Shown here piece after piece: positions 2,698 through 35,813 of a stretch of DNA of 37,129 nt. The DNA is from a virus. Taxonomy: Duplodnaviria > Caudoviricetes. The first letter of the stretch is position 1; each line of letters begins with the position of its first letter. The notes beneath the pieces were generated by a model. The model did no database searches. It saw nothing but the letters and a program-made list of their open reading frames with translations, and was not told the origin of the DNA. The stretch is from positions 1-37,129 of IMG/VR virus record IMGVR_UViG_3300003965_000001; one strand, written 5' to 3'. Position numbers and translations under genes: made by a program.

Positions 2698-3081
2698 TTA
2701 TCGTGTGAGTTTCTCCCCTCGCTCACTGTCGAGCGGCTCCCGCCGATCGGCTTCGGCCTTGAGTTCCTCATAAGCGGATTGCAGGGCATCGCGCTTCGCA
2801 TAAGGAAATGCGGCCATGTCACCAAGAAAAATATAGTTTAGATCGACCTCAAGATAGGGCAGGGCCAGAAGGAGGGATGGAATAGATGGATAATTCCGAC
2901 CCTTACCCCACTGTGTAATTTGACTGGATGAGGCGCCAATCTGGCGCTGAAGGTCAGCCTGCGTCATGCCGGCAACCTTGAGGGCGGCCTTTATTCGCAA
3001 CCCTGTCTCTTTGGTGTCTGCCAGAGCCAATAGCCGCCGGCCAGCGCGCGCCTTGTCCATGGGTATGATGATCGCGCTCAT
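2698..3081 (-). CDS. CI-like XRE-family HTH repressor, short, no peptidase domain
   Basis: RIKAALKVAGMTQADLQRQIGASSSQITQWGKGRNYPS HTH; VDLNYIFLG; position at the divergence point; lower GC. Confidence 0.88.
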   Translation of the reverse strand: MSAIIIPMDKARAGRRLLALADTKETGLRIKAALKVAGMTQADLQRQIGASSSQITQWGKGRNYPSIPSLLLALPYLEVDLNYIFLGDMAAFPYAKRDALQSAYEELKAEADRREPLDSERGEKLTR

Positions 3082-16424: not shown

Positions 16425-16712
16425 ATGCCCTTCATCCTCGCGAACTTCCAGCCGATCGGCGGCCAGTCCAAGGCCGGCAGCGCGCCGCAGCGCTTCAGCT
16501 ACAAGACGGAGGACGCCCAGACCACGGTCGATGGCGCGGGCTACTTCAACGCGGTGCGCGACAGCCTCTTCGTCGGCGACATCATCGACGTCGTCGTCGT
16601 GAATAGCAGCAACGTGGTGCAGACCTACGGGCCGCACATCGTGATGACGAAGTCCGCCACCGCCGTGGATGTGTCGAACGTCACCACTGGCACCGTCACG
16701 AACAGCGACTGA
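16425..16712 (+). CDS. Capsid decoration/cement protein
   Basis: FSYKTEDAQTTVDGAGYFN...VGDII; directly after capsid. Confidence 0.7.
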   Translation: MPFILANFQPIGGQSKAGSAPQRFSYKTEDAQTTVDGAGYFNAVRDSLFVGDIIDVVVVNSSNVVQTYGPHIVMTKSATAVDVSNVTTGTVTNSD

Positions 16713-16718
16713 GGCAGC

Positions 16719-16747
16719 GGCGCCGGCGGCGACGCGCCGCCGGCGCC
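16719..16747 (+). terminator. Perfect 13-bp GC hairpin after the capsid/decoration genes (terminator-like or RNA-stabilising; no U-tract)
   Basis: GGCGCCGGCGGCG-acg-CGCCGCCGGCGCC. Confidence 0.5.
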
Positions 16748-16762
16748 TGTGCGGAGGCAGGC

Positions 16763-17086
16763 ATGGGCAAGATCTCGGCCGACGTGCCGGACAGCGCCGT
16801 CGGCGTCCTGGCGGGCAGCTTCACGGCGACGGGCCAGAGCGCCGGCATCCTCGCCGGACGCGGGCTGAACCTCACCCTGTCCGGCACCTTCGTGGCCACC
16901 GTCACCGTCCAGCGGAGCTTCGATGGCGGCACGACCTGGCATGCTGTCTTCACGCCGGACGGGCTGGTGGCGCGGCAGTTCACCGGCCCGGTGAGCCTGT
17001 CGCTGTGGGAGCCCGAGGAAGGCGTGCTCTATCGGCTCGACTGTGCCTGGACGAGCGGCGAAGCCGTCTATCGGTTGAGCCGCTGA
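16763..17086 (+). CDS. All-beta virion protein, putative head spike base
   Basis: LSGTFVATVTVQRSFDGGTTW; SD GGAGG. Confidence 0.65.
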   Translation: MGKISADVPDSAVGVLAGSFTATGQSAGILAGRGLNLTLSGTFVATVTVQRSFDGGTTWHAVFTPDGLVARQFTGPVSLSLWEPEEGVLYRLDCAWTSGEAVYRLSR

Positions 17087-18375
17087 TGATCATTTCCCCG
17101 GTCAGCGGCCTGTTCGGCAGCGCGGGCGCGCTCGGCCTGTTCGGTGAGCGGAACGGGCTCGATCGCCCGATGATCCGCAGCCAGGCGCCGCTGCTGCGCG
17201 GCACCGGCAGCACCGCGGCGAACTACACCTTCCACGTCACCTGGGCGCTGGAATGCGAGTTCGACCTCGTCCGGCTGGTCTATCACAACAACACGGCCTC
17301 GCCCTGGACCGTGAACAACGCGGCCGTCGCGCCGAGCGCAAAATACAACAACGGCTTCGATCCGGTGACCGCGGCGGATGCGCCGGTGAGTTGGACGGCC
17401 CTGACGTTCGGCGCGGCGGGCGCGGATGGCCTCGCACCGTCGCCCTCGGGCGCGGCGACGCAGCTCGACATCCCGGCGAGCCCCAGCACCGCCCGCAACG
17501 TCTTCGCCTTCACCGATTGGTTGCGACTGTCCTCCCTGCCGCGCGCCGATGTCGGCGATGGCCGGCCGCTGCTGATGACGCGCACTTACGGCATCAATGC
17601 CGGGCTGCGCGCCTTCCCGTCGAATGCCGCCTGGCCGACGGAGAATGAGGGGCGCATCCTCCGCGCCTTCTACAAATCGGGCGGCAACTACACCACGAGC
17701 GGCTTCACCACGCCGACAGCGGATGACAGCTTCACCACGCCCTGCGGCATCCAATACTACGGTCGCCTGCGCGGGGCGACGGTCCTGTCCGTCGGCGACA
17801 GCCTGACCCAAGGCACGGCCGACGCCGACCGTAACCCGTATTCCTGGGGCCACTACGCGACGGCCCGCCTCAGCACGCGAGACCGCCCGGTGTCCTTCGT
17901 GAATGGTGGCTGGCACGGCCAGACCTCAGCGAGCTACCTGGAGAACGCGCGAACCCATCTCGAGGTTTTCCGGGCCGATATCCTGACGATGCCGACCTGG
18001 TCGCCGAACGACACCCGCACCCAGGCGGCTGCCGACATCGCCTGGCAGAACATCATGGAGGTCGCCGCCTACGCCCTCTCCAGGGGGTGCGTGCCGATCC
18101 TGGCCACGGCGATTCCCTACGGCCTCAACCTTGCGGACGACAACCTCCGCAAGGGCATGAACAACCGAGCGCGGGCCATGGCCGGTGCGGGCGCGATGCT
18201 GGTGGCGGACCTGGACGCGGCCGTGACGAATGGCGGCTCGCCCGCCGCCGTGCCGCCCGGATTGCTGGCCAGCGGTGCGCATCTCACCCCCGCCGGATAT
18301 CGGCAGTGCGGCGTCGGAGCCGCGCCGGTGATCGGGCGGGCGCTGAATGCCCTCGGGCTGCGCGTGCCGGGCTAG
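17086..18375 (+). CDS. Virion-associated SGNH/GDSL hydrolase (putative head fibre esterase)
   Basis: VGDSLT, NGGWHG, SPND, GAHL blocks; TGATG coupling at 17084-17088. Confidence 0.8.
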   Translation: MIISPVSGLFGSAGALGLFGERNGLDRPMIRSQAPLLRGTGSTAANYTFHVTWALECEFDLVRLVYHNNTASPWTVNNAAVAPSAKYNNGFDPVTAADAPVSWTALTFGAAGADGLAPSPSGAATQLDIPASPSTARNVFAFTDWLRLSSLPRADVGDGRPLLMTRTYGINAGLRAFPSNAAWPTENEGRILRAFYKSGGNYTTSGFTTPTADDSFTTPCGIQYYGRLRGATVLSVGDSLTQGTADADRNPYSWGHYATARLSTRDRPVSFVNGGWHGQTSASYLENARTHLEVFRADILTMPTWSPNDTRTQAAADIAWQNIMEVAAYALSRGCVPILATAIPYGLNLADDNLRKGMNNRARAMAGAGAMLVADLDAAVTNGGSPAAVPPGLLASGAHLTPAGYRQCGVGAAPVIGRALNALGLRVPG

Positions 18376-24900: not shown

Positions 24901-25108
24901 GCCCATGGTGGCGACCACGGGCGACGCGCTCGGCCTGGCGCTGGGCAACCCGTCGATCGGCGCGCCGGAGCCGGCGGCCGAGCTGCGCCAGGGGCCGCTC
25001 GCCGTCCCGCCCGAAGAACAGCGTCGCCGGATGGATGAGCGCCTCGGCATCCCGCTGACGCCGCCAGGCGGCGCGCCCGTGCGCCGCGTGCCGGAGCCGC
25101 GGCCGTGA
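21968..25108 (+). CDS. Internal virion (ejection) protein with SLT lytic transglycosylase domain
   Basis: RESEG...SPAGAQGPAQIMPDTA...ALMAYNWG...ETRAYV (~23330-23720; catalytic Glu codon at 23411). Confidence 0.88.
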   Translation: MSGSRGRPAAPEFAPRVLAELAPAGGGAAMVAGQQIESIGERISRLGQIGQHRLDQAAEEEAQQAGAAAGEQEPGTVMEGGGGLYRRAYNRAAIEAGGRRLEITARQEFERMAREHAADPDAFQRSAIAWRDGVLAQMPEAFRVRVAPTLDAMAAPFLRIARTQQDQHVADERGASFVAALPLRLAAIERAGLRIATDPAARTEADREQAGLRGELVALGPRTAFSFEGQHYPADSTRAGRYNLEQMAEIRRRSQDIEAVALARGAFRTGPQTLAAVEAFERRAEAGEVAGLRPDQARSVADALRRDLAQARAAQTEGQREARAALAPRVDADRAAIAESGAPVGNILDSELSAAGYDVPQYRAQERARMLGWQARQDLAGVDTPARAQEIADRFAPGSALFLADPEAARQVLLFARERGASIRAASLQDTIRDRAAELTAGAGAAVRHAAAVPQEWRPIIAEAARQHGVQEFFGQALLGRESEGRADAVSPAGAQGPAQIMPDTAANPGFGMVPLPRDAIRDPARAIPWALEYYSRLRAHFGGSDELALMAYNWGHRNVTRWIEGGRTGPVPAETRAYVAALLPAAGGDPARSGATLPPIVSPEEAIAAGQTPEWAARASAEAAEAARIAALRQAALTATPEQRRDIEAELAVVGERAAENARAAAAWREVLADRERGMREDPAGYVTATSPILHQLEQRVIQGDATALSPLLDAVRQEQARQGVPEAAQRPISVGLAQGLVQSLMALPTDAERLPALRQMLGQVRMDQQGDVLAALRMSRLPEPVAIAAAVAPRLGEAAASRLLTELTTDVGKLGLTPELTRTVRENTASLMDDSDRVGGLRARQYQATGNADFLERAAQGAVRLRHVVSVRAAASQDASGSVVRGAYEDLYGSHVAMDRRGVLALVPRGVDQAALARGLEVLRDREANRLAPGDSAAARGIRTDFSRGRWMDIGDGQFAYFPQGSPIWHVRPDGSPMVATTGDALGLALGNPSIGAPEPAAELRQGPLAVPPEEQRRRMDERLGIPLTPPGGAPVRRVPEPRP

Positions 25109-27603
25109 GCGCCATCGACTTCCTCGGCGCCCCGGCGGGCCTACAGGTGCCGTCCGACTATCGCGACCTGTTCGCCCGCTACGAGACGCCGTGGGGCGAG
25201 TTCCTCGGCGCCTCGGCGCGGGAGGGCTGGTGGGCCACCGTTGCCGGCCAGGGCGAAGCCGGCGGCCGCATCAACCGGGCCGAGATCACCGCACCGGCCG
25301 ACGACCTGGCGCCGCTCGCCGAGCCGGATTGGCGCGCCAGCCCTGAGTTCCGCCAGGGCATTCCCTTCCGACCAGGCATGACGCGCGCCGAGGCGCGGAC
25401 GCGGGCGGAGATCTTCGACGAGACCGCGGAGCGGCATCGGCTGATGGCGGGCCGCACCGGCCTCATGGCGACCGTCGCCGGCTTCGGCGCCGGCGTCGTG
25501 GGCAGCCTGCCGACCCCCGAGAACTTCATCCCCTTCGCCGGCCCTGCCTTGCGCGTGGCGCAGGCACAGCGCGTCTCGGCCCGCCTGGCGGCGATCGCCG
25601 CACGGGCGGAAGCCGCGACGGCCGGCGGCATCCTGGCGCGCGCCGGCGTCGGCGCCGCCATGGGCGCCACCGATGGATTGCTCGGCAGCGCCATCGCCAT
25701 GCCCTTCACGGTGCCGAGCCGCGAGAGTTTCGGCGACGACGTGACCTGGACGGACATCGTGCTGGACCTGGCCATGGGTGCCGCCGCCGGCGGCGTGCTG
25801 GGCGGCGCCTTCGGTGCGGCCTTCGGGCGCAACCGCGCCCGGGATGCCCGTGCCGGCACGCAGGACGCCGCTGGCGCCCCGGAGCGGGCAGCGCCGGGCG
25901 ATCCGACCATCCCCGAGCAGGATGCCGCCCTGCGCGCCCTGGCGGCCTCCGCGGTGCAGGTCGCAGACGGCGGCGAGGTGGACCTCTCGCTGCTGCCCCC
26001 GCAGGTCCGGGACATGGTCAGCGGACTGCGCGCCGAGAACCGCCGCCTGGCCGCGCAGGTGCTGCCGACCGCCGGCGAGGGCGCCAGCGTCTCGGAGCGC
26101 GCGGCCGCGCGGGCGGGCGGCCCGACCCAGCCCGCCGCGCCGGACGGCACGGGCCGGGCGGTAACGCCCGCCGGAACCGAGATCGAATTCCGCTGGGAAG
26201 TGGTGGAGGCGGATGATCTGGTGCCAAGCCACACGCTGCCCGACTTCGCTGAGAACTCGCGCTTCCCGCAGGAACTGCAACCGCGCGATCGCGGCAGCGA
26301 GGAGCGCCAGGCGCAGGTGCTGGACATCGCCGCGCGCCTTCGCCCCGAAGAGGTCGAAGCCTCGCCGCTGACCACGACGGGGGCGCCGATCGTCGGACCG
26401 GACGGCCTGGTGGAGAGCGGCAACGGCCGGACGCTGGCGATCCTCGCCGCCTATCGCCGCCAGCTCGCAACCGCTCAGGCCTATCGCGCCATGCTGGTGC
26501 GGGCCGGATTCGCGGCGGCCGAGATGCGCGAGCCGGTGCTGATCCGCCGTCGCACCACGGAGATGGACGCCGCCGGCCGGCGCCGTCTGGCGGAGGAGAG
26601 CAACGCCCGCCAGACCGATGCGCTGACCCCGGCCGAACAGGCGCGCACCGATGCGCGCGGCCTCGGCGCCGAGCAGCTGCGCCTGCTGCGCGGGCAGGAC
26701 CTGGCCTCGGCCGAGAACGGCGATTTCGTGCGTGCCTTCCTCGGCCGCCTACCCGGCACCGAGGCGCGGGACTTCTCGGCCGACGGCGCGTTGACGCCGG
26801 ATGGCGAGGCGCGGCTGCGCCGCGCGCTGGCGGCCCGGGCCTACCAGGACCCGACCCTGATCGCCCGCCTGACGCAGAGCCGCGACGGCGCGGCCGAGGC
26901 GCTGGGGCGCGCGCTGCTGGACGTGGCGCCGGCGCTGGCCCGGCTGCGCACCGCCGCGGAGGCGGGCGAGGTGCGCCCCGCGCTGCTGGCAATCGACGCC
27001 CTGGTGCGGGCGGTGCAGCGCATCCAGGCGGCGCGGGATGCGGGGCGGCCGCTGCGCAGTGTCTTCGACCAGCTCGACCTGTTCGGCGACGACGCCAGCC
27101 CGGCCGAGCGCGCCTTCCTGGACCTGCTGCTGCGCCATCCCGTGCGCCAGGACATCGGCGGCCTCGGCCGCGAGACGATCGCCGCCCGGCTTGCCGCCTA
27201 TGCACGCGCCGCGCTCGAGGCGCCGCAGCAGCCCGACGCCTTCGGCCTGCCGCCGCCGCATCTCGGCGACGTGCTGCGCGCGGCGTTTCGCGAGGCCGGG
27301 CTCGACGCGCCGCCGGCGTTGCGCGCGCTCGAGGCCGACGCCTTCCGTCCGCCGTCGGAGGAAGCGCCGCCGCCACCGCTGCCGGAAGCGCCGTCGGGCG
27401 ATCCCGTCGCCAGGGCGGCGGCGGACCTTGGAATGGACGCGGACGCCACCATCGCCGCGGCCGAGTTCGATCGACTGGCCGAGGCCGGCGGTCTGCCGCC
27501 CGAGCTGGTGGCCGATTTGCGCGATGCCGACGACCTGGTGGCCAAGACCGAGAAGGCGGAAGCGGTGTGGGCGGAAGCCGCCGCCTGCGCCGTGAGGGGC
27601 TGA
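25105..27603 (+). CDS. Internal virion protein with DdrB-like ParB domain
   Basis: Gly/Ala hydrophobic N-terminus; VVEADDLVPSH...ELQPRDR...GAPIVGPDGLVESGNGR...PVLIR. Confidence 0.8.
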   Translation: MSAIDFLGAPAGLQVPSDYRDLFARYETPWGEFLGASAREGWWATVAGQGEAGGRINRAEITAPADDLAPLAEPDWRASPEFRQGIPFRPGMTRAEARTRAEIFDETAERHRLMAGRTGLMATVAGFGAGVVGSLPTPENFIPFAGPALRVAQAQRVSARLAAIAARAEAATAGGILARAGVGAAMGATDGLLGSAIAMPFTVPSRESFGDDVTWTDIVLDLAMGAAAGGVLGGAFGAAFGRNRARDARAGTQDAAGAPERAAPGDPTIPEQDAALRALAASAVQVADGGEVDLSLLPPQVRDMVSGLRAENRRLAAQVLPTAGEGASVSERAAARAGGPTQPAAPDGTGRAVTPAGTEIEFRWEVVEADDLVPSHTLPDFAENSRFPQELQPRDRGSEERQAQVLDIAARLRPEEVEASPLTTTGAPIVGPDGLVESGNGRTLAILAAYRRQLATAQAYRAMLVRAGFAAAEMREPVLIRRRTTEMDAAGRRRLAEESNARQTDALTPAEQARTDARGLGAEQLRLLRGQDLASAENGDFVRAFLGRLPGTEARDFSADGALTPDGEARLRRALAARAYQDPTLIARLTQSRDGAAEALGRALLDVAPALARLRTAAEAGEVRPALLAIDALVRAVQRIQAARDAGRPLRSVFDQLDLFGDDASPAERAFLDLLLRHPVRQDIGGLGRETIAARLAAYARAALEAPQQPDAFGLPPPHLGDVLRAAFREAGLDAPPALRALEADAFRPPSEEAPPPPLPEAPSGDPVARAAADLGMDADATIAAAEFDRLAEAGGLPPELVADLRDADDLVAKTEKAEAVWAEAAACAVRG

Positions 27604-27606
27604 TCC

Positions 27607-30600
27607 ATGGCCGTCACGCCCGCCTGCGTCGCTGCCGTCGTGGACGCCTCCGGCGGCCGCATGAACGACGCCGAGGCCACCGACCTGATCCGCTACATGG
27701 AGACGCTGCGCAAGGCCGAGGAGGCACGCGGCAATCTGGATGGACTGGCCGATCGGGTGATGGCGCTGGCACGCCAGGATGCCGAGCGGGCGCAGATCGC
27801 CGCGGCGATCGCCAGGAAGCACGCGGCGCTGTCCGCCGTCGCCTATGCCCGCGCGCTCGAGCATCTGCGCGGCCTGGTGGCGGAGGGCCTGACCTATCGC
27901 AAGGCGGTGCTGGCGCTGCTGGAAGGCACGGTGCGCGACGCGGAACGCGGCCGCGCCAGCGTCGCCGCCACCTCGCTCGCCTATTTCGATCGCTACATGC
28001 AGGCGTGGAACCTGGCCATCGCCCGCGATCCGGAGCTGGCGAAGCGCATGCGCGATCCGGACTTTGGCCGCGCTGTCGTCATCGAGATGCGCGAGCTGCG
28101 CGACGGCGGAAAGCCCGGCCGCAGTGGCGACCCCAAGGCGCTCGAGTTGGCGCAGATCTACACGCAGGCCAGCGAGCTGGCGCGGGTGGACCTCAACCGC
28201 CACGGCGCCACGATCGGCAAGCTGGACGGGTGGAGCCCGCAAGGTCACGACGGCCAGCGGGTGATCCGCGTCGCGCAGCATGAATGGATTGACTTCATCC
28301 TGCCGCGTCTCGATCGCGAGCGGACCTTCGGCACGATGGATGACGAGCTGGTGCGCCAGGCGCTGCGCGACATCTATGACGAGATCACCCTCGGCACGTC
28401 GCGGAACACGCTGATCCCCGAGAACCCCGGGAAGGTCAGACCGGCCAACCTGGCCAATACCCTCGGCCAGTCCCGCACGCTGCACTTCCGCGATGCCGAG
28501 GCATGGCACGGCTATGCCGAGAGATTCGGCAGCGACATCCACGCGGCCATGCTCGGCCATCTCAACAAGGCCGCGAAGGCCGCGGCGCAGATGCAGGTGC
28601 TGGGGCCGAACCCGGGCGCCACCTTGCAGCGCCTTCGCCTCGCCCTGGTGGAGATGGCGCGGACCGACAAGAAGCTGACGCAAGTGCAGCGCGCCGAGCA
28701 GATCAGCAGCCTGCGCGGCGGCACGCTGATGAACCGGGCGATCGACAGCAGCTGGGCCGAGGTGTCCGGCATGAACGCCGCGCCCGGGAACATCCGGATG
28801 GCGCAGATCGGCACGACGCTCCGCGCCTGGCAGATGCTGGCGCGCCTCGGCGGCGCCGTCGTCACCTCCATCACCGACATCCCGCAGCGCTCCCTAGCGA
28901 TGACGATGCAGGGCCAGCCCATGTTGCAGGCCTGGCGGCAGAACTTCGCCGACACCTTCAGCCCCGGGAAGATGAAGTCGCGCAAGTTCCGCGAGATGGC
29001 GGCCGTGATGCATGCCGGCGTCGAAGGCTCGCGCGGGCAGATCATCGCGGCCGGCATCGCCGAGGACGCGCCCATGGGCAAGGTCCACAAGCTGACGGCC
29101 GCCTTCTTCCGCATCCAGGGGCTGACCGCCTGGCAGGACTGGCGCAAGGCGCAGGCGAGCTGGGGCCTGGCGCGATGGATGGGCTTCAACGCCGATCGCC
29201 CGCTGGACGGCATCAACGCGCGCTATCGCGCGATCCTCCGCCAGCATGGAATCGGCGCCGAGGATTGGGAGCTGATCCGATCCGTGGCGCGCGAGGTGGA
29301 GGGCGACCGCTACGTCACGCCCGACCGCATCGCCGACATCCCGCTTGCGAAGTTCGCCGGCCTGGCGAAGCCGGCGCTCGAGGCGCTGGACAAGGGGCTG
29401 GCCGAGCGCACCGCGAAGCGCGCCGCGGCCGACGCCCGCGAGGCGCAATGGGTGAAGGGCCGAACCGACAAGCTGGCGGAGACGGTCCAGCGGGGCATCG
29501 CCGGCCTTCAACGGATCAACCAGCAGGCCGAGGGCGGCCGCGACCGGCGCGTCGCCGAGCTGGTGGAGAGGCTCGGCGAATTGCAGGCACGCCTGTCCGA
29601 CCTGGCCGAATTCCAGGACGCGATCGCCGAGGGGCGGGTATGGGACCCGCCGGCGGCGCCGGCCGAATCGGCCCCCGCGGCGGCCGGCTTCGACCCCGAC
29701 ATCGCCGCCTGGCGCGCCGGTGCGGAGCTGCCTGCCGATGTCGCCGCGGCCGAAGCGCGGGCAGCCGAGCTGGCAAAGACGCCGACCAGCGAGATCCGCA
29801 CGCCGGAGCGGCTGGACCTGCAACGCCAGGCGGCCCGAGCCGTGCTGGCCGAGCGCGTTGCGCAAATTGGCGGCGCGGTCGCGGCGGAGCGCCGGGCCGT
29901 GATCGTCATGGGCCCGCCGGCCGCCGGCAAATCGACCGTCGCCGATCCCATCGCCGTGCGCCTCAAGGCCGTGGTGGTGGACAGCGACGATATGAAGGCC
30001 CGCCTGCCGAAGTTCGAAGGCGGCGTCGGCGCCGGGCGGGTGCATGAGGAAAGCGCCGTCATGGCCGAGACGATGCGGCAGGACCTGTCCGGCGCCGGCG
30101 TCAACATGGTGCTGCCGATCGTCGGCAGCGGACAGGAGCGCGTGGCCACCCTGATCGCGGAGTTGAAGGCCAGCGGCTACCGCGTCGACCTGGTGCTGAA
30201 CGACCTGCCGCTGGAAGACGCGGCGCGGCGGAACATGGCGCGGTTCCGTCGCACCGGGCGCCTGGTGCCGATGTCCTACTTGATGAGCATTGGCGACAGC
30301 CCGCGCGCCAACTATATGTCGCTCAGAGCAAAGGCGGATGGACATGCCGAATACTCCAACGCCGTCCCCCGAGGAGCCCCGCCTCTATACCGCGGAGGAA
30401 CTTCAGACCTTCTTGGGGCGGACGCCACCTCCCCCGGCGGAGGACCTGGCGGCGATCAAGGGGCTCGCCCCGGACGATCAGACGCTCGAGCTGATGATCC
30501 GGGGGCTGCGCCGCGGCCGGGAGCCGAAGGCGAAGGCGGCCGAGTAGGGCCGCGCAGCAGCAACACCGCCCGGTCCGGCGAGGCCGCCACGGGCGGCGCC

Positions 30601-31641
30601 GGCCGCGTCTTCTCGCCACGCTCCGAACGCTACCTGGACACCGGTAACCCTGCGATGCGCGCGGCGCGGGCCGAGGGCGAGCTGCGCTCACGGACGGACG
30701 CGCTGCGCAGGACGATCGGCAGCATCAACCGCGCGGCCGGCCAGGCCGAGAAGACGCGTCTCTCCGCCTTCCTGTCCTGGTGGAATGAACGCCAGGTTGA
30801 GCTCGACGACTTCGCCCGCCGCATGGATGAGCGGGCGGCCGCGCGAGCCGAGTGGCAGAAGGCCGACGATGCCGCCTGGCAGCCCCGCGCCGACGCAGCC
30901 CTGGCCGATGCGCGCCGCGACCTCGAGGTGAAGCTGCGCCGCTTCTTCGCGGATGAGATGCGGTTCGCCTACATCGAAACGGATGCCACCAGCCGGCGCC
31001 TTGCCTTGCAGGGGACGCAAGGCGGAACCGTGGTCGGCGAGATCATGCGCACGCTGGCGCAGTTCAAAGGCTGGCCGATCGCTTTCACACAGCGGACGCT
31101 CGGCCGCGCCATCTACGGACAGCCCAACCGCACCGCGATGGACCGCCTGCTGACCGGCGCGAATGTCGGCAGCGTGGTCGCCACCATGATGTTCGCCGGC
31201 TACCTCACCCTGACGCTGAAGGACCTGCTGCGGGGCTACGGCCCGCGCGATCCGACCGAGCGCCAGACCCTGCTGGCGGCCCTGGTGCAGGGCGGCGGCG
31301 CGGGAATTTTCGGGGACTTCCTCTTCGGCCAGGCCAACCGCTTCGGCGGCAGCTTCGCGGCGACGGTGGCCGGGCCTTTGGTCGGCGGCGTCGGGGAGGA
31401 TTTGCAAAAGCTCTACCTGATGGCGCGGGAGGGCGATGTGAAAAGCGGCCGCGCCCTCGGCATCCTGTTGCAGAACACGCCCTTCCTGAACCTCTGGTAT
31501 CTCCGGCCGGTGCTCGACTTCCTGGTGCTCAACGCCCTGCGCGAGCACCTCTCGCCCGGCCACCTCTCCAAGCTCGATCGCGACCGCAGGCGCGACTTCG
31601 GCCAGGAGCGCGTGTTGCCGCGCTCCGCCTTCGACTTCTGA
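27607..31641 (+). CDS. Large internal virion (ejection) protein with inserted zeta-toxin-like P-loop kinase
   Basis: Ejection-protein motifs (SRTLHFRD, GEIMRTLAQFKGWP, GGGAGIFGDFL, PFLNLWY) flank VIVMGPPAAGKST...VDSDDMK...HEES...RFRRTGRLVP. Confidence 0.85.
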   Translation: MAVTPACVAAVVDASGGRMNDAEATDLIRYMETLRKAEEARGNLDGLADRVMALARQDAERAQIAAAIARKHAALSAVAYARALEHLRGLVAEGLTYRKAVLALLEGTVRDAERGRASVAATSLAYFDRYMQAWNLAIARDPELAKRMRDPDFGRAVVIEMRELRDGGKPGRSGDPKALELAQIYTQASELARVDLNRHGATIGKLDGWSPQGHDGQRVIRVAQHEWIDFILPRLDRERTFGTMDDELVRQALRDIYDEITLGTSRNTLIPENPGKVRPANLANTLGQSRTLHFRDAEAWHGYAERFGSDIHAAMLGHLNKAAKAAAQMQVLGPNPGATLQRLRLALVEMARTDKKLTQVQRAEQISSLRGGTLMNRAIDSSWAEVSGMNAAPGNIRMAQIGTTLRAWQMLARLGGAVVTSITDIPQRSLAMTMQGQPMLQAWRQNFADTFSPGKMKSRKFREMAAVMHAGVEGSRGQIIAAGIAEDAPMGKVHKLTAAFFRIQGLTAWQDWRKAQASWGLARWMGFNADRPLDGINARYRAILRQHGIGAEDWELIRSVAREVEGDRYVTPDRIADIPLAKFAGLAKPALEALDKGLAERTAKRAAADAREAQWVKGRTDKLAETVQRGIAGLQRINQQAEGGRDRRVAELVERLGELQARLSDLAEFQDAIAEGRVWDPPAAPAESAPAAAGFDPDIAAWRAGAELPADVAAAEARAAELAKTPTSEIRTPERLDLQRQAARAVLAERVAQIGGAVAAERRAVIVMGPPAAGKSTVADPIAVRLKAVVVDSDDMKARLPKFEGGVGAGRVHEESAVMAETMRQDLSGAGVNMVLPIVGSGQERVATLIAELKASGYRVDLVLNDLPLEDAARRNMARFRRTGRLVPMSYLMSIGDSPRANYMSLRAKADGHAEYSNAVPRGAPPLYRGGTSDLLGADATSPGGGPGGDQGARPGRSDARADDPGAAPRPGAEGEGGRVGPRSSNTARSGEAATGGAGRVFSPRSERYLDTGNPAMRAARAEGELRSRTDALRRTIGSINRAAGQAEKTRLSAFLSWWNERQVELDDFARRMDERAAARAEWQKADDAAWQPRADAALADARRDLEVKLRRFFADEMRFAYIETDATSRRLALQGTQGGTVVGEIMRTLAQFKGWPIAFTQRTLGRAIYGQPNRTAMDRLLTGANVGSVVATMMFAGYLTLTLKDLLRGYGPRDPTERQTLLAALVQGGGAGIFGDFLFGQANRFGGSFAATVAGPLVGGVGEDLQKLYLMAREGDVKSGRALGILLQNTPFLNLWYLRPVLDFLVLNALREHLSPGHLSKLDRDRRRDFGQERVLPRSAFDF
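30338..30547 (+). CDS. Nested +1-frame small protein overprinted in the large ejection gene; candidate antitoxin (start 30338 or 30344)
   Basis: GC-rich third positions move to this frame; the host frame becomes Gly/Arg/Asp low-complexity with A/T-ending codons. Confidence 0.6.
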   Translation: MDMPNTPTPSPEEPRLYTAEELQTFLGRTPPPPAEDLAAIKGLAPDDQTLELMIRGLRRGREPKAKAAE

Positions 31642-34003: not shown

Positions 34004-34067
34004 GCGATCAGGAGTTGGACGGCACCGAAGTTGGATTGCGGGTTGAGATCACGGCAAACTGCCCAAC

Positions 34068-34112
34068 TTCGTAATCAGTAGGTCCCCGGTTCAAATCCGG
34101 GTGTCGGCACCA
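34068..34112 (+). other. attR core: 3' half of tRNA-Thr(CGT)
   Basis: TTCGTAA anticodon loop, T-arm CCCGG-TTCAAAT-CCGGG, TGTCGGC-A-CCA; no 5' half upstream. Confidence 0.88.
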
Positions 34113-34382: not shown

Positions 34383-35055
34383 GGGCCGCACCGGGGCGGG
34401 GGCAACGCAGGACATACATCGCGCGGCGCGGCCACTGCAGGGCCATCCCCGCGTGGGCGGGGGCACCGGGCGTCTGCTCGGCGTGGCTGATCCGGCGATG
34501 GGGCCATCCCCGCGTGGGCGGGGGCACCCGCATAGGTGTTGATGAAGCTGTTCACGACGAAGGGCCATCCCCGCGTGGGCGGGGGCACCCGGCGGCGGCA
34601 GCCTCGTCGTCGGAAGATCGCGGGGCCATCTCCGCGTGGGCGGGGGCACCCGCACTGCCGGAGGAGGACGCCGCCACGGTGAAGGGCCATCCCCGCGTGG
34701 GCGGGGGCACCGAGGCCCCCCCGCAGAAGGCAACGCCGGTGGAGGGGCCATCCCCGCGTGGGCGGGGGCACCGGCACCGGGCGAAGCTGGGCATACTGCG
34801 ACTGGGGGCCATCCCCGCGTGGGCGGGGGCACCCCGAAGATCGTGATGCCGCCGGCGCTCGCGTTGGGGCCATCCCCGCGTGGGCGGGGGCACCGGGTTA
34901 CGGTAGCGTTTCCCGATGCGCTGTGCGGGGCCATCCCCGCGTGGGCGGGGGCACCCTACGGAGCAACCCGCTATCATGCGCCATTCCGGGGCCATCCCCG
35001 CGTGGGCGGGGGCACCAGAGACGCTTTCCCATTGGGGTAGCCGGGGCCGGGGCCA
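34383..35055 (-). CRISPR. Type I-E CRISPR array: 10 full 28-nt repeats (34440-35016, 61-nt period), one degenerate trailer repeat (~34383-34406), one 6-nt repeat stub (35050-35055), 11 spacers of 33 nt; no leader
   Basis: Repeat GGTGCCCCCGCCCACGCGGGGATGGCCC on the minus strand; plus-strand starts 34440, 34501, 34562, 34623 (1 SNP), 34684, 34745, 34806, 34867, 34928, 34989. Confidence 0.97.
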
Positions 35056-35813
35056 AAGGGGAAGAAGCCCTCGTCAGTGTTCGAGGCGATCCAGTCGGCG
35101 AGCGAGAGCAAACCGGCGAACCCGTGCAAGGCGGAGTCGGGCAGCGGGCTCATTCGCTCCACCGCGAGCAGGCTGCCCGGTAGCCAGGCCGCAAGCGCAG
35201 CGCAGAGGGAGCGCGCCTCCGCGACGGGGTCATAGTCCTCCGCCGGCCGCCAGAGCGGCAGGCATCGGTGCGCTTCGAGTTCAAGCGACGCTTGCGGCAG
35301 GGGCGCGCCGTGGTGGCCGAGCGCCGCCAGCAGCAACTTGCCGGCGGGAGTCGCAGGCACGAGGAAGCTCCCGCCCTCGGGGATCGAAATGCGGTGCCCG
35401 CCAGCCGGACGAAAGAGAAGCGGTCCGACCTCCGCGAGATGTCCGGCGATCGGCCCGCCTCCGCGTTCCCCTTTCGGACGCTGCTTGCGCCAGAAGCCGA
35501 GATTGGCTTTGCCGATATCGTGCAGGAAGGCCGCGCCAATCATCGCCGCCTGTTGATCGTCGGTGATCTCGGCACCGGCGAGATGAGCCAACTTCGCCCT
35601 GAGCGACGGGATCGCGATCAGTGCCGCGAAGACGGCCGCCACGTCAGCCGCGTGGTCGGTCAGTGAGAGGTAAGCTACTGGCCATGCATCAGGGGATGGG
35701 CGCTCCAATTTTCCCCAAGCGTGCGAACCGATTGGAGTAAGGTCCGCGCCAACGCCCGCCCGCTGCGGCAGTCCCGATGGTCCGTCGCGCTTGCCCCGAG
35801 TCTGCCGTCCCAT
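34974..35813 (-). pseudogene. cas3: Truncated cas3: HD nuclease domain only, frame runs into the CRISPR array
   Basis: AWGK, DHAADVA, LHDIGKA, GHL, GHHG, LADWIAS motifs; helicase absent; exact start uncertain. Confidence 0.88.

Follow-up and report, generated by a model that had tools for sequence, protein, structure and literature searches.

How can a toxin-like enzyme be built into a virion protein, and does the linker that follows it conceal a second gene? These questions are raised by the window, i.e., the entire 37,129-nt stretch of DNA analysed here. The window encodes a portal protein, a T7-type scaffold, capsid and tail proteins, an SLT-bearing internal virion protein, a ddrB-ParB protein and a tailspike, and represents a podophage or a prophage. 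Its end looks like that of a prophage, as suggested by a repressor-like gene (2698-3081), the 3' half of a tRNA gene (34066-34112) and a CRISPR array; no integrase was identified in the window. The tRNA segment, read by eye, is the 3' half of a tRNA-Thr(CGT) gene ending in CCA and lies directly after the tailspike gene, as at a prophage attachment site; neither ARAGORN nor Rfam called it. The CRISPR array (34439-35813) consists of 10 repeats with a 61-bp period and 9 spacers of 32 nt, and adjoins a minus-strand ORF for a Cas3 HD domain, the end of which runs into the array. None of the 9 spacers matched the phage part of the window. The features of the locus itself are the following.

25105-27603, + strand: upstream virion gene with a ddrB-like ParB domain (Pfam PF18763); the same gene position holds the kinase cassette in many related phages.
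27607-31641, + strand: host gene for a virion structural or putative internal virion (ejection) protein of 1344 aa, phrog_684 family (PHROG E 5e-139).
29344-30906, + strand: in-frame insert of ~520 aa (aa ~580-1100) that insert-free homologues lack, as seen on alignment with L184 and L185.
29887-30384, + strand: zeta-toxin-like P-loop kinase domain, aa ~761-926 (Pfam PF06414, 46.9 bits, cut-off 22.3).
30331-30337, + strand: Shine-Dalgarno-like AAGGCGG of the nested ORF, recognised in the sequence.
30338-30547, + strand: nested +1-frame gene for a candidate inhibitor or immunity protein of 69 aa (from ATG 30338) or 67 aa (from ATG 30344), recognised by a codon switch and by ORFs at the same site family-wide.
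30385-30600, + strand: main-frame linker rich in G, R, P and D, largely the shifted reading of the nested gene (main-frame pN/pS of 0.87 at the equivalent site in relatives).

Phage homologues of the host gene are annotated as virion structural or internal virion proteins and, from this annotation and the gene order, we infer that the host protein is ejected into the host cell. The proposal in an earlier note on this DNA that a cassette had been inserted in frame into this gene was borne out, as ~520 aa are absent from the homologous host genes: BLAST matches are split, ending at aa ~575-585 and resuming at ~1092-1103. By eye, the two ends of the insert (~29350-29650 and ~30640-30900) look charged and α-helical, and they may pair to form a stalk keeping the kinase off the virion protein. 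No DNA of close relatives of the host gene was found in viral contigs.

The kinase domain carries a Walker A lysine (K775) and the further motif residues D794, H813/E815, R875 and R879. Its predicted model (pLDDT 91.5) has zeta (3q8x/1gvn) as best fold match (E 2e-8, TM 0.77-0.79), the Foldseek ranks 1-8 being all zeta or PezT. The family is large, comprising 996 clusters at 50% identity (E < 1e-30). K775 and D794 match K46 and D67 of zeta, i.e., its Walker A lysine and catalytic aspartate, and K775, D794 and R879 do not vary in any of the 89 clusters, so that the kinase is probably active. In zeta, contacts with UNAG are made by D67, E100, T118, R120 and T128, and a T-to-V change abolishes the toxicity of PezT (PMC3062530). 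When mapped by hand, E100 aligns with E821, whereas T118, R120 and T128 align with V839, S841 and L849, respectively. Thus, the kinase resembles the zeta type yet lacks most residues expected of a UNAG kinase. Its substrate is therefore probably not UNAG, and its toxicity is uncertain.

At the end of this domain, the reading frame with the codon usage typical of the genome changes. As the earlier note had observed, the main frame fills with A/T-ending codons (GGA, CGA, CTA, ACT, TCA, CTT, GCT and GTA are all present; 32 of 68 codons over the nested ORF), whilst the +1 frame has genome-typical codons: GC3 across the nested ORF is 0.54 in the main frame vs. 0.87 in the +1 frame, and the lowest main-frame GC3 in other windows of this phage's genes is 0.76. 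In a codon model, the difference between the +1 and the main frame is +1.54 at the nested ORF, as compared to a maximum of -1.11 (mean -2.23, sd 0.46) in 938 windows of equal length elsewhere in the genes of this phage. Elsewhere, codon usage indicated that the long ORF 16669-18375 is mis-started and contains a separate gene at 16763-17086 followed by a GDSL-lipase gene from ATG 17086; a high +1 score at 16690-16880 was discarded as a product of this mis-started ORF.

An artefactual frameshift behind the nested ORF was ruled out, since the stretch was reproduced without indels in contigs from four public runs, i.e., X1 (29858-30354 and 30328-30594), X2 (30026-30491 and 30468-30771), X3 (30292-30449) and X5 (30213-30423), of which one may be the source sample and in which no single piece spans the whole insert. 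The AAGGCGG motif noted before the ORF is indeed present, but it directly adjoins ATG 30338 and its spacing suits ATG 30344 better; the 67-aa product is thus the more likely one. Likewise, the ORF was correctly placed at the end of the kinase, but it does not start beyond the domain: both ATGs are located at or in the last predicted β-strand (aa 912-917, or D911-S917 when taken more broadly). The peptide of the window has no homologue in any library searched and no Pfam match, and it does not match the profile of the other nested peptides (E 0.3); it joins the family by position only. In addition, recoding of the window locus alone yields such a +1 ORF in 64% of the trials, because the linker residues favor an ORF.

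The position of the ORF was evaluated across the kinase family. Scans yielded 293 loci, 255 of which had the domain; 165 of these were distinct and formed 89 clusters at 70% identity. After leaving out six clusters (L005, L015 and L077 with <90 bits; L158, L060 and L266 with too little DNA), 83 were tested, the window included, for a +1 ORF of at least 45 codons with an ATG start within -4 to +12 codons of the kinase's last strand. Such an ORF was found in 77 clusters, as compared to 21.0 expected after synonymous recoding with each locus's codon usage, and in 67 it was accompanied by a Shine-Dalgarno match of 4 or more (9.4 expected); such counts do not represent independent events, since the clusters share ancestry. 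The starts of 64 of the 77 ORFs fall at just two positions. None of the 83 clusters had such an ORF in the +2 frame and, at sham anchors in the same host ORFs, one was present in 369 of 4674 cases (7.9%), and with a Shine-Dalgarno match in 103 (2.2%). In the first 64 clusters, stops in the +1 frame amount to ~7% of the codons before the anchor, drop to 0-1% for 60 codons, and then return to 7%. The nested ORFs encode 52-110 aa (median 63), which agrees with the pattern of MuF-type toxin-immunity pairs, in which a small ORF (<150 aa) immediately follows the toxin domain. In two of the misses (L126 and L075), the nested ORF begins just outside the test window, whilst in a third (L073) the kinase end is frameshifted and there is no clear partner gene. 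The other three misses are L014, L074 and L182, in which the partner is not nested (see below). A second nested ORF straight after the first was found in none of the 33 clusters with enough host ORF. Thus, the start, the ribosome-binding site and the open frame of the second reading frame are retained beyond chance in the 83 clusters.

Which of the two frames is constrained was deduced from 45 close pairs in 21 clusters, which across the linker showed 193 non-synonymous and 175 synonymous changes in the +1 frame. In the linker, the host frame has a pN/pS of 0.87 and the +1 frame one of 0.31. Selection thus constrains the small gene, of which the linker of the host protein is the shifted reading; in a larger set of 69 pairs, the values are 0.90 and 0.48, respectively. 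The host frame has a pN/pS of 0.11 in the kinase and of 0.20 after the nested stop (45 pairs). In the last kinase strand, the host frame is constrained (0.07) and the +1 frame is at 2.67. The linker is enriched in G and R (0.25 vs. a background of 0.155; 123 homologues). Hence, the suspected overprinted gene proved to be tied to the kinase, the +1 ORF being kept under purifying selection in kinase homologues, and comparative sequence analysis confirmed it as a real, conserved gene that is shared by most related phage kinases. Since the window has no close relative, this selection holds for the family and not for the window's own ORF.

The layouts found in the family show how the two genes are arranged. 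Among the 77 clusters, 69 of the ORFs are fully embedded in the host gene and 8 extend past its stop codon. In other cases, the kinase is C-terminal and followed by a separate small gene, i.e., in L014, L015, L074 and L077, in mycobacteriophage Phrappuccino (gp58) and on a Burkholderia plasmid. In L014 (4610-4941), which is from a Clostridia genome, a near-perfect sigma-70 promoter (TTGACA-17-TACAAT) is located between the kinase and the separate gene. In the L182 cluster, the next gene starts at the kinase stop, and the first part of its product is homologous to the nested peptides of a sister clade; such segments were the top three outside matches among 23,729 segments (E 0.0018-0.077). By eye, the kinase in P0061, P0073 and L182 is C-terminal on an apparent portal-type protein, and the peptide homologue forms the N-terminus of the next large gene. 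The halovirus HVTV-1 has, after the zeta domain of gp115 (L295:2132-2269), an unannotated acidic +1 ORF of 40-45 codons with the same GC3 switch, whilst cyanophage PSS2 has an internal kinase without a nested ORF. In 33 of 88 other clusters, the phrog_684-family gene is insert-free and the cassette resides in its immediate upstream neighbor; the window aside, none of the loci surveyed had the cassette inside that gene. At the protein level, a kinase spotted by eye in P0130, a protein from a Roseococcus MAG, occupies the site that it has in the window, in a member of the same host family; no DNA for P0130 was found in viral contigs. The putative stalk ends are absent in P0130. As these arrangements show, the kinase and the small gene travel as one module among different large virion proteins, and the overlap is built into this module rather than created at the insertion in the window. 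Consequently, of the suggestion that an immunity cassette was kept by overprinting, the immunity-like traits stand (separate-gene layouts, an adjacent un-nested homologue and, at the protein level, possible extra copies), but the overlap is inherent to the module and the linker simply reads through the small gene.

The nested peptides share a general make-up, i.e., a start rich in S and T, an acidic middle and a basic end, and they diversify with the kinase clades, as viewed in a quick tree that serves for description only, good support being found for 5 of its 68 branches. A seed profile of 15 sequences matched 73 of 151 peptides at E < 0.001, with a shared aromatic-acidic motif; the remaining peptides fall into separate groups, and those of different clades are not alignable. 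In database searches, the profile retrieved five proteins, all kin of the input loci by sequence, and an Atlas search with a subfamily peptide gave no usable match. At E up to 0.1, the matches obtained for 66 relatives included no epsilon family. The longer nested peptides of 107-110 aa (L165:3479-3799 and L186:3479-3808) and the linker of P0158 appear internally duplicated. At the protein level, the post-kinase segment is repeated in 2 of 93 database proteins vs. 0 of 86 controls, and also in P0158 and P0159. The second post-kinase segment of P0030 matches the linker of P0019 (score 170), the kinase of which is 73% identical, and not the linker of P0004, although the latter has the nearest kinase (83% identical). 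By sequence, this second copy resembles an orphan immunity gene.

Taken at the sequence level, these data make it probable that the nested ORF encodes the cognate inhibitor, or immunity protein, of the kinase in a portable module that protects the producing cell. Late in infection, one long mRNA would be read in two frames. Translation of the host frame would yield the virion protein with the kinase, and internal initiation at the Shine-Dalgarno sequence a separate peptide of 6-7 kDa with an S/T-rich disordered start, an acidic middle and a basic helical end. This peptide would likely bind and block the kinase, perhaps at the ATP site like epsilon does, so that the producing cell survives the building of virions. 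Virions would take up and inject the kinase but leave the peptide behind, and in the next cell to be infected the kinase would act on a substrate, probably one other than UNAG. With its inhibitor encoded in a different frame, the module could enter the middle of a polyprotein in frame and still retain this inhibitor. The additional idea that lysogens in particular are protected, for which an internal promoter had been anticipated, is unsupported: the virulent, cultured haloarchaeal virus HVTV-1 (PMC4284463) has the same layout, and no sigma-70-type site was found in 29600-30800, which is a weak test in a genome with 70% GC.

The alternative that fares best is that the peptide is a true partner of the kinase but functions as a chaperone, an activator or a packaging or assembly factor instead of neutralizing toxicity. 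The linkage and selection data fit this option equally, the toxicity of the kinase is unproven with its substrate pocket being unlike that of zeta, and the first ~15 residues of the peptide overlap the strand that they could complement. However, rapid, clade-specific divergence and the orphan-like copy derived from another kinase variant suit immunity better than a folding helper, and we consider this option unlikely. Somewhat less likely still is that the peptide acts apart from the kinase, for example as a microprotein for host takeover or anti-defence, and is linked to it by co-expression in the cassette. The lack of alignable sequences between clades would be in line with such independence, but the start is fixed to one kinase strand across different hosts, GC contents and an archaeal virus, and the peptide remains adjacent to the kinase even when un-nested.

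That the +1 frame forms the end of a longer protein made by programmed frameshifting, comprising the N-terminus of the host protein, the kinase and the peptide, is very improbable. This idea derives from three database records (P0097, P0160 and P0161) in which the kinase is fused in frame to the small peptide; these fusions lack the last kinase strand and are possibly inactivated alleles, separate-gene layouts exist, and 67 of 83 clusters retain a Shine-Dalgarno sequence and ATG. When the P0097 fusion was folded as a single chain, without a control or a docking read-out, the pTM was 0.62 and the pLDDT of the C-terminal helix ~70-80. Equally improbable is that the ORF of the window is a relic in decay, or that it arose by chance from the residues of the linker, as its frequent recovery upon recoding and its want of homologues might suggest, given the intact Shine-Dalgarno sequence, start and kinase motifs, the family-typical length, and a contrast between genome-typical +1 codons and atypical main-frame codons that was unmatched in the 938 other windows.

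With the peptide as the preferred candidate inhibitor, the module can be compared with known systems. In the MuF polymorphic toxins of temperate phages, a toxin-like domain is present on a head protein, a small ORF is proposed to confer immunity, and delivery into the infected cell is proposed (PMC5576092). There, the toxin is C-terminal on a MuF protein and the small ORF comes after it, whereas here the domain is internal (aa 761-926 of 1344) in a podophage internal-virion protein of phrog_684 without MuF, and the small gene, in the +1 frame, already begins within the domain. With epsilon/zeta and PezAT, the kinase shares the fold, the Walker A lysine and the catalytic aspartate, and in both cases a small partner gene adjoins the kinase (PMC3062530, PMC3218275). 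However, it is only ~170 aa long vs. 270-290 aa in those systems, with 21% identity and most UNAG contacts replaced. In epsilon/zeta operons, the antitoxin gene comes first. Here, unlike in epsilon/zeta, the kinase is fused into a virion protein, and the partner is downstream or nested and unrelated to epsilon.

A precedent, by analogy of fold, for a zeta-type kinase acting on another substrate is AvrRxo1, which was among the fold matches of the kinase model. AvrRxo1-ORF1 has the zeta fold and has kept the ATP-binding but not the UNAG-binding residues, has another substrate, and is accompanied by a partner, ORF2 (PMC5087710); it is a type III plant effector with a separate partner gene, and its likeness to the kinase described here is one of fold. 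Zeta-like kinases are also known among the domains of polyvalent proteins, i.e., multi-domain, injected proteins of phages and conjugative elements, including fusions to MuF, and a role in cell-wall weakening was proposed (PMC5512222). The passages of that paper on this domain mention no cognate small gene for it, and the word "overlap" occurs 0 times in its main text. For haloviruses, the role of virion-borne zeta-like domains was stated to be unknown (PMC4284463). Out-of-frame internal genes with a product that binds the host-frame product are exemplified by slr0489L/S of Synechocystis, for which a toxin-antitoxin-like rescue was reported, and by Rz/Rz1 of phage lambda, both as presented in one preprint (bioRxiv 10.64898/2025.12.20.695498). 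Those are membrane or envelope proteins, whereas the module described here is an enzyme module mobile among virion proteins. Thus, virion-borne zeta-like kinases, small ORFs after MuF toxins and an out-of-frame toxin-antitoxin-like pair were already known, and no published description of the nested gene on this kinase was found in searches of the openly accessible literature.

The partner gene of the kinase is invisible to gene callers and has been missed by annotation. More tentatively, and with somewhat less than even chances in our estimate, self-immunised cassettes, in which the last strand of a kinase toxin is the start of the +1 antitoxin, may hop in frame into any injected protein, from those of bacterial podophages to that of a haloarchaeal virus, with variant-specific and orphan antitoxins leading to kin discrimination between related phages. 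If so, a large number of immunity genes would lie unannotated in the G/R-rich linkers that follow effector domains of polyvalent proteins. An inhibitory function of the peptide, if borne out, would explain how an enzyme toxin can reside inside a virion protein without poisoning the producing cell. It would also make these kinases clonable for work on their substrates, and yield a testable rule by which further hidden immunity genes could be sought after other effector domains in polyvalent proteins.
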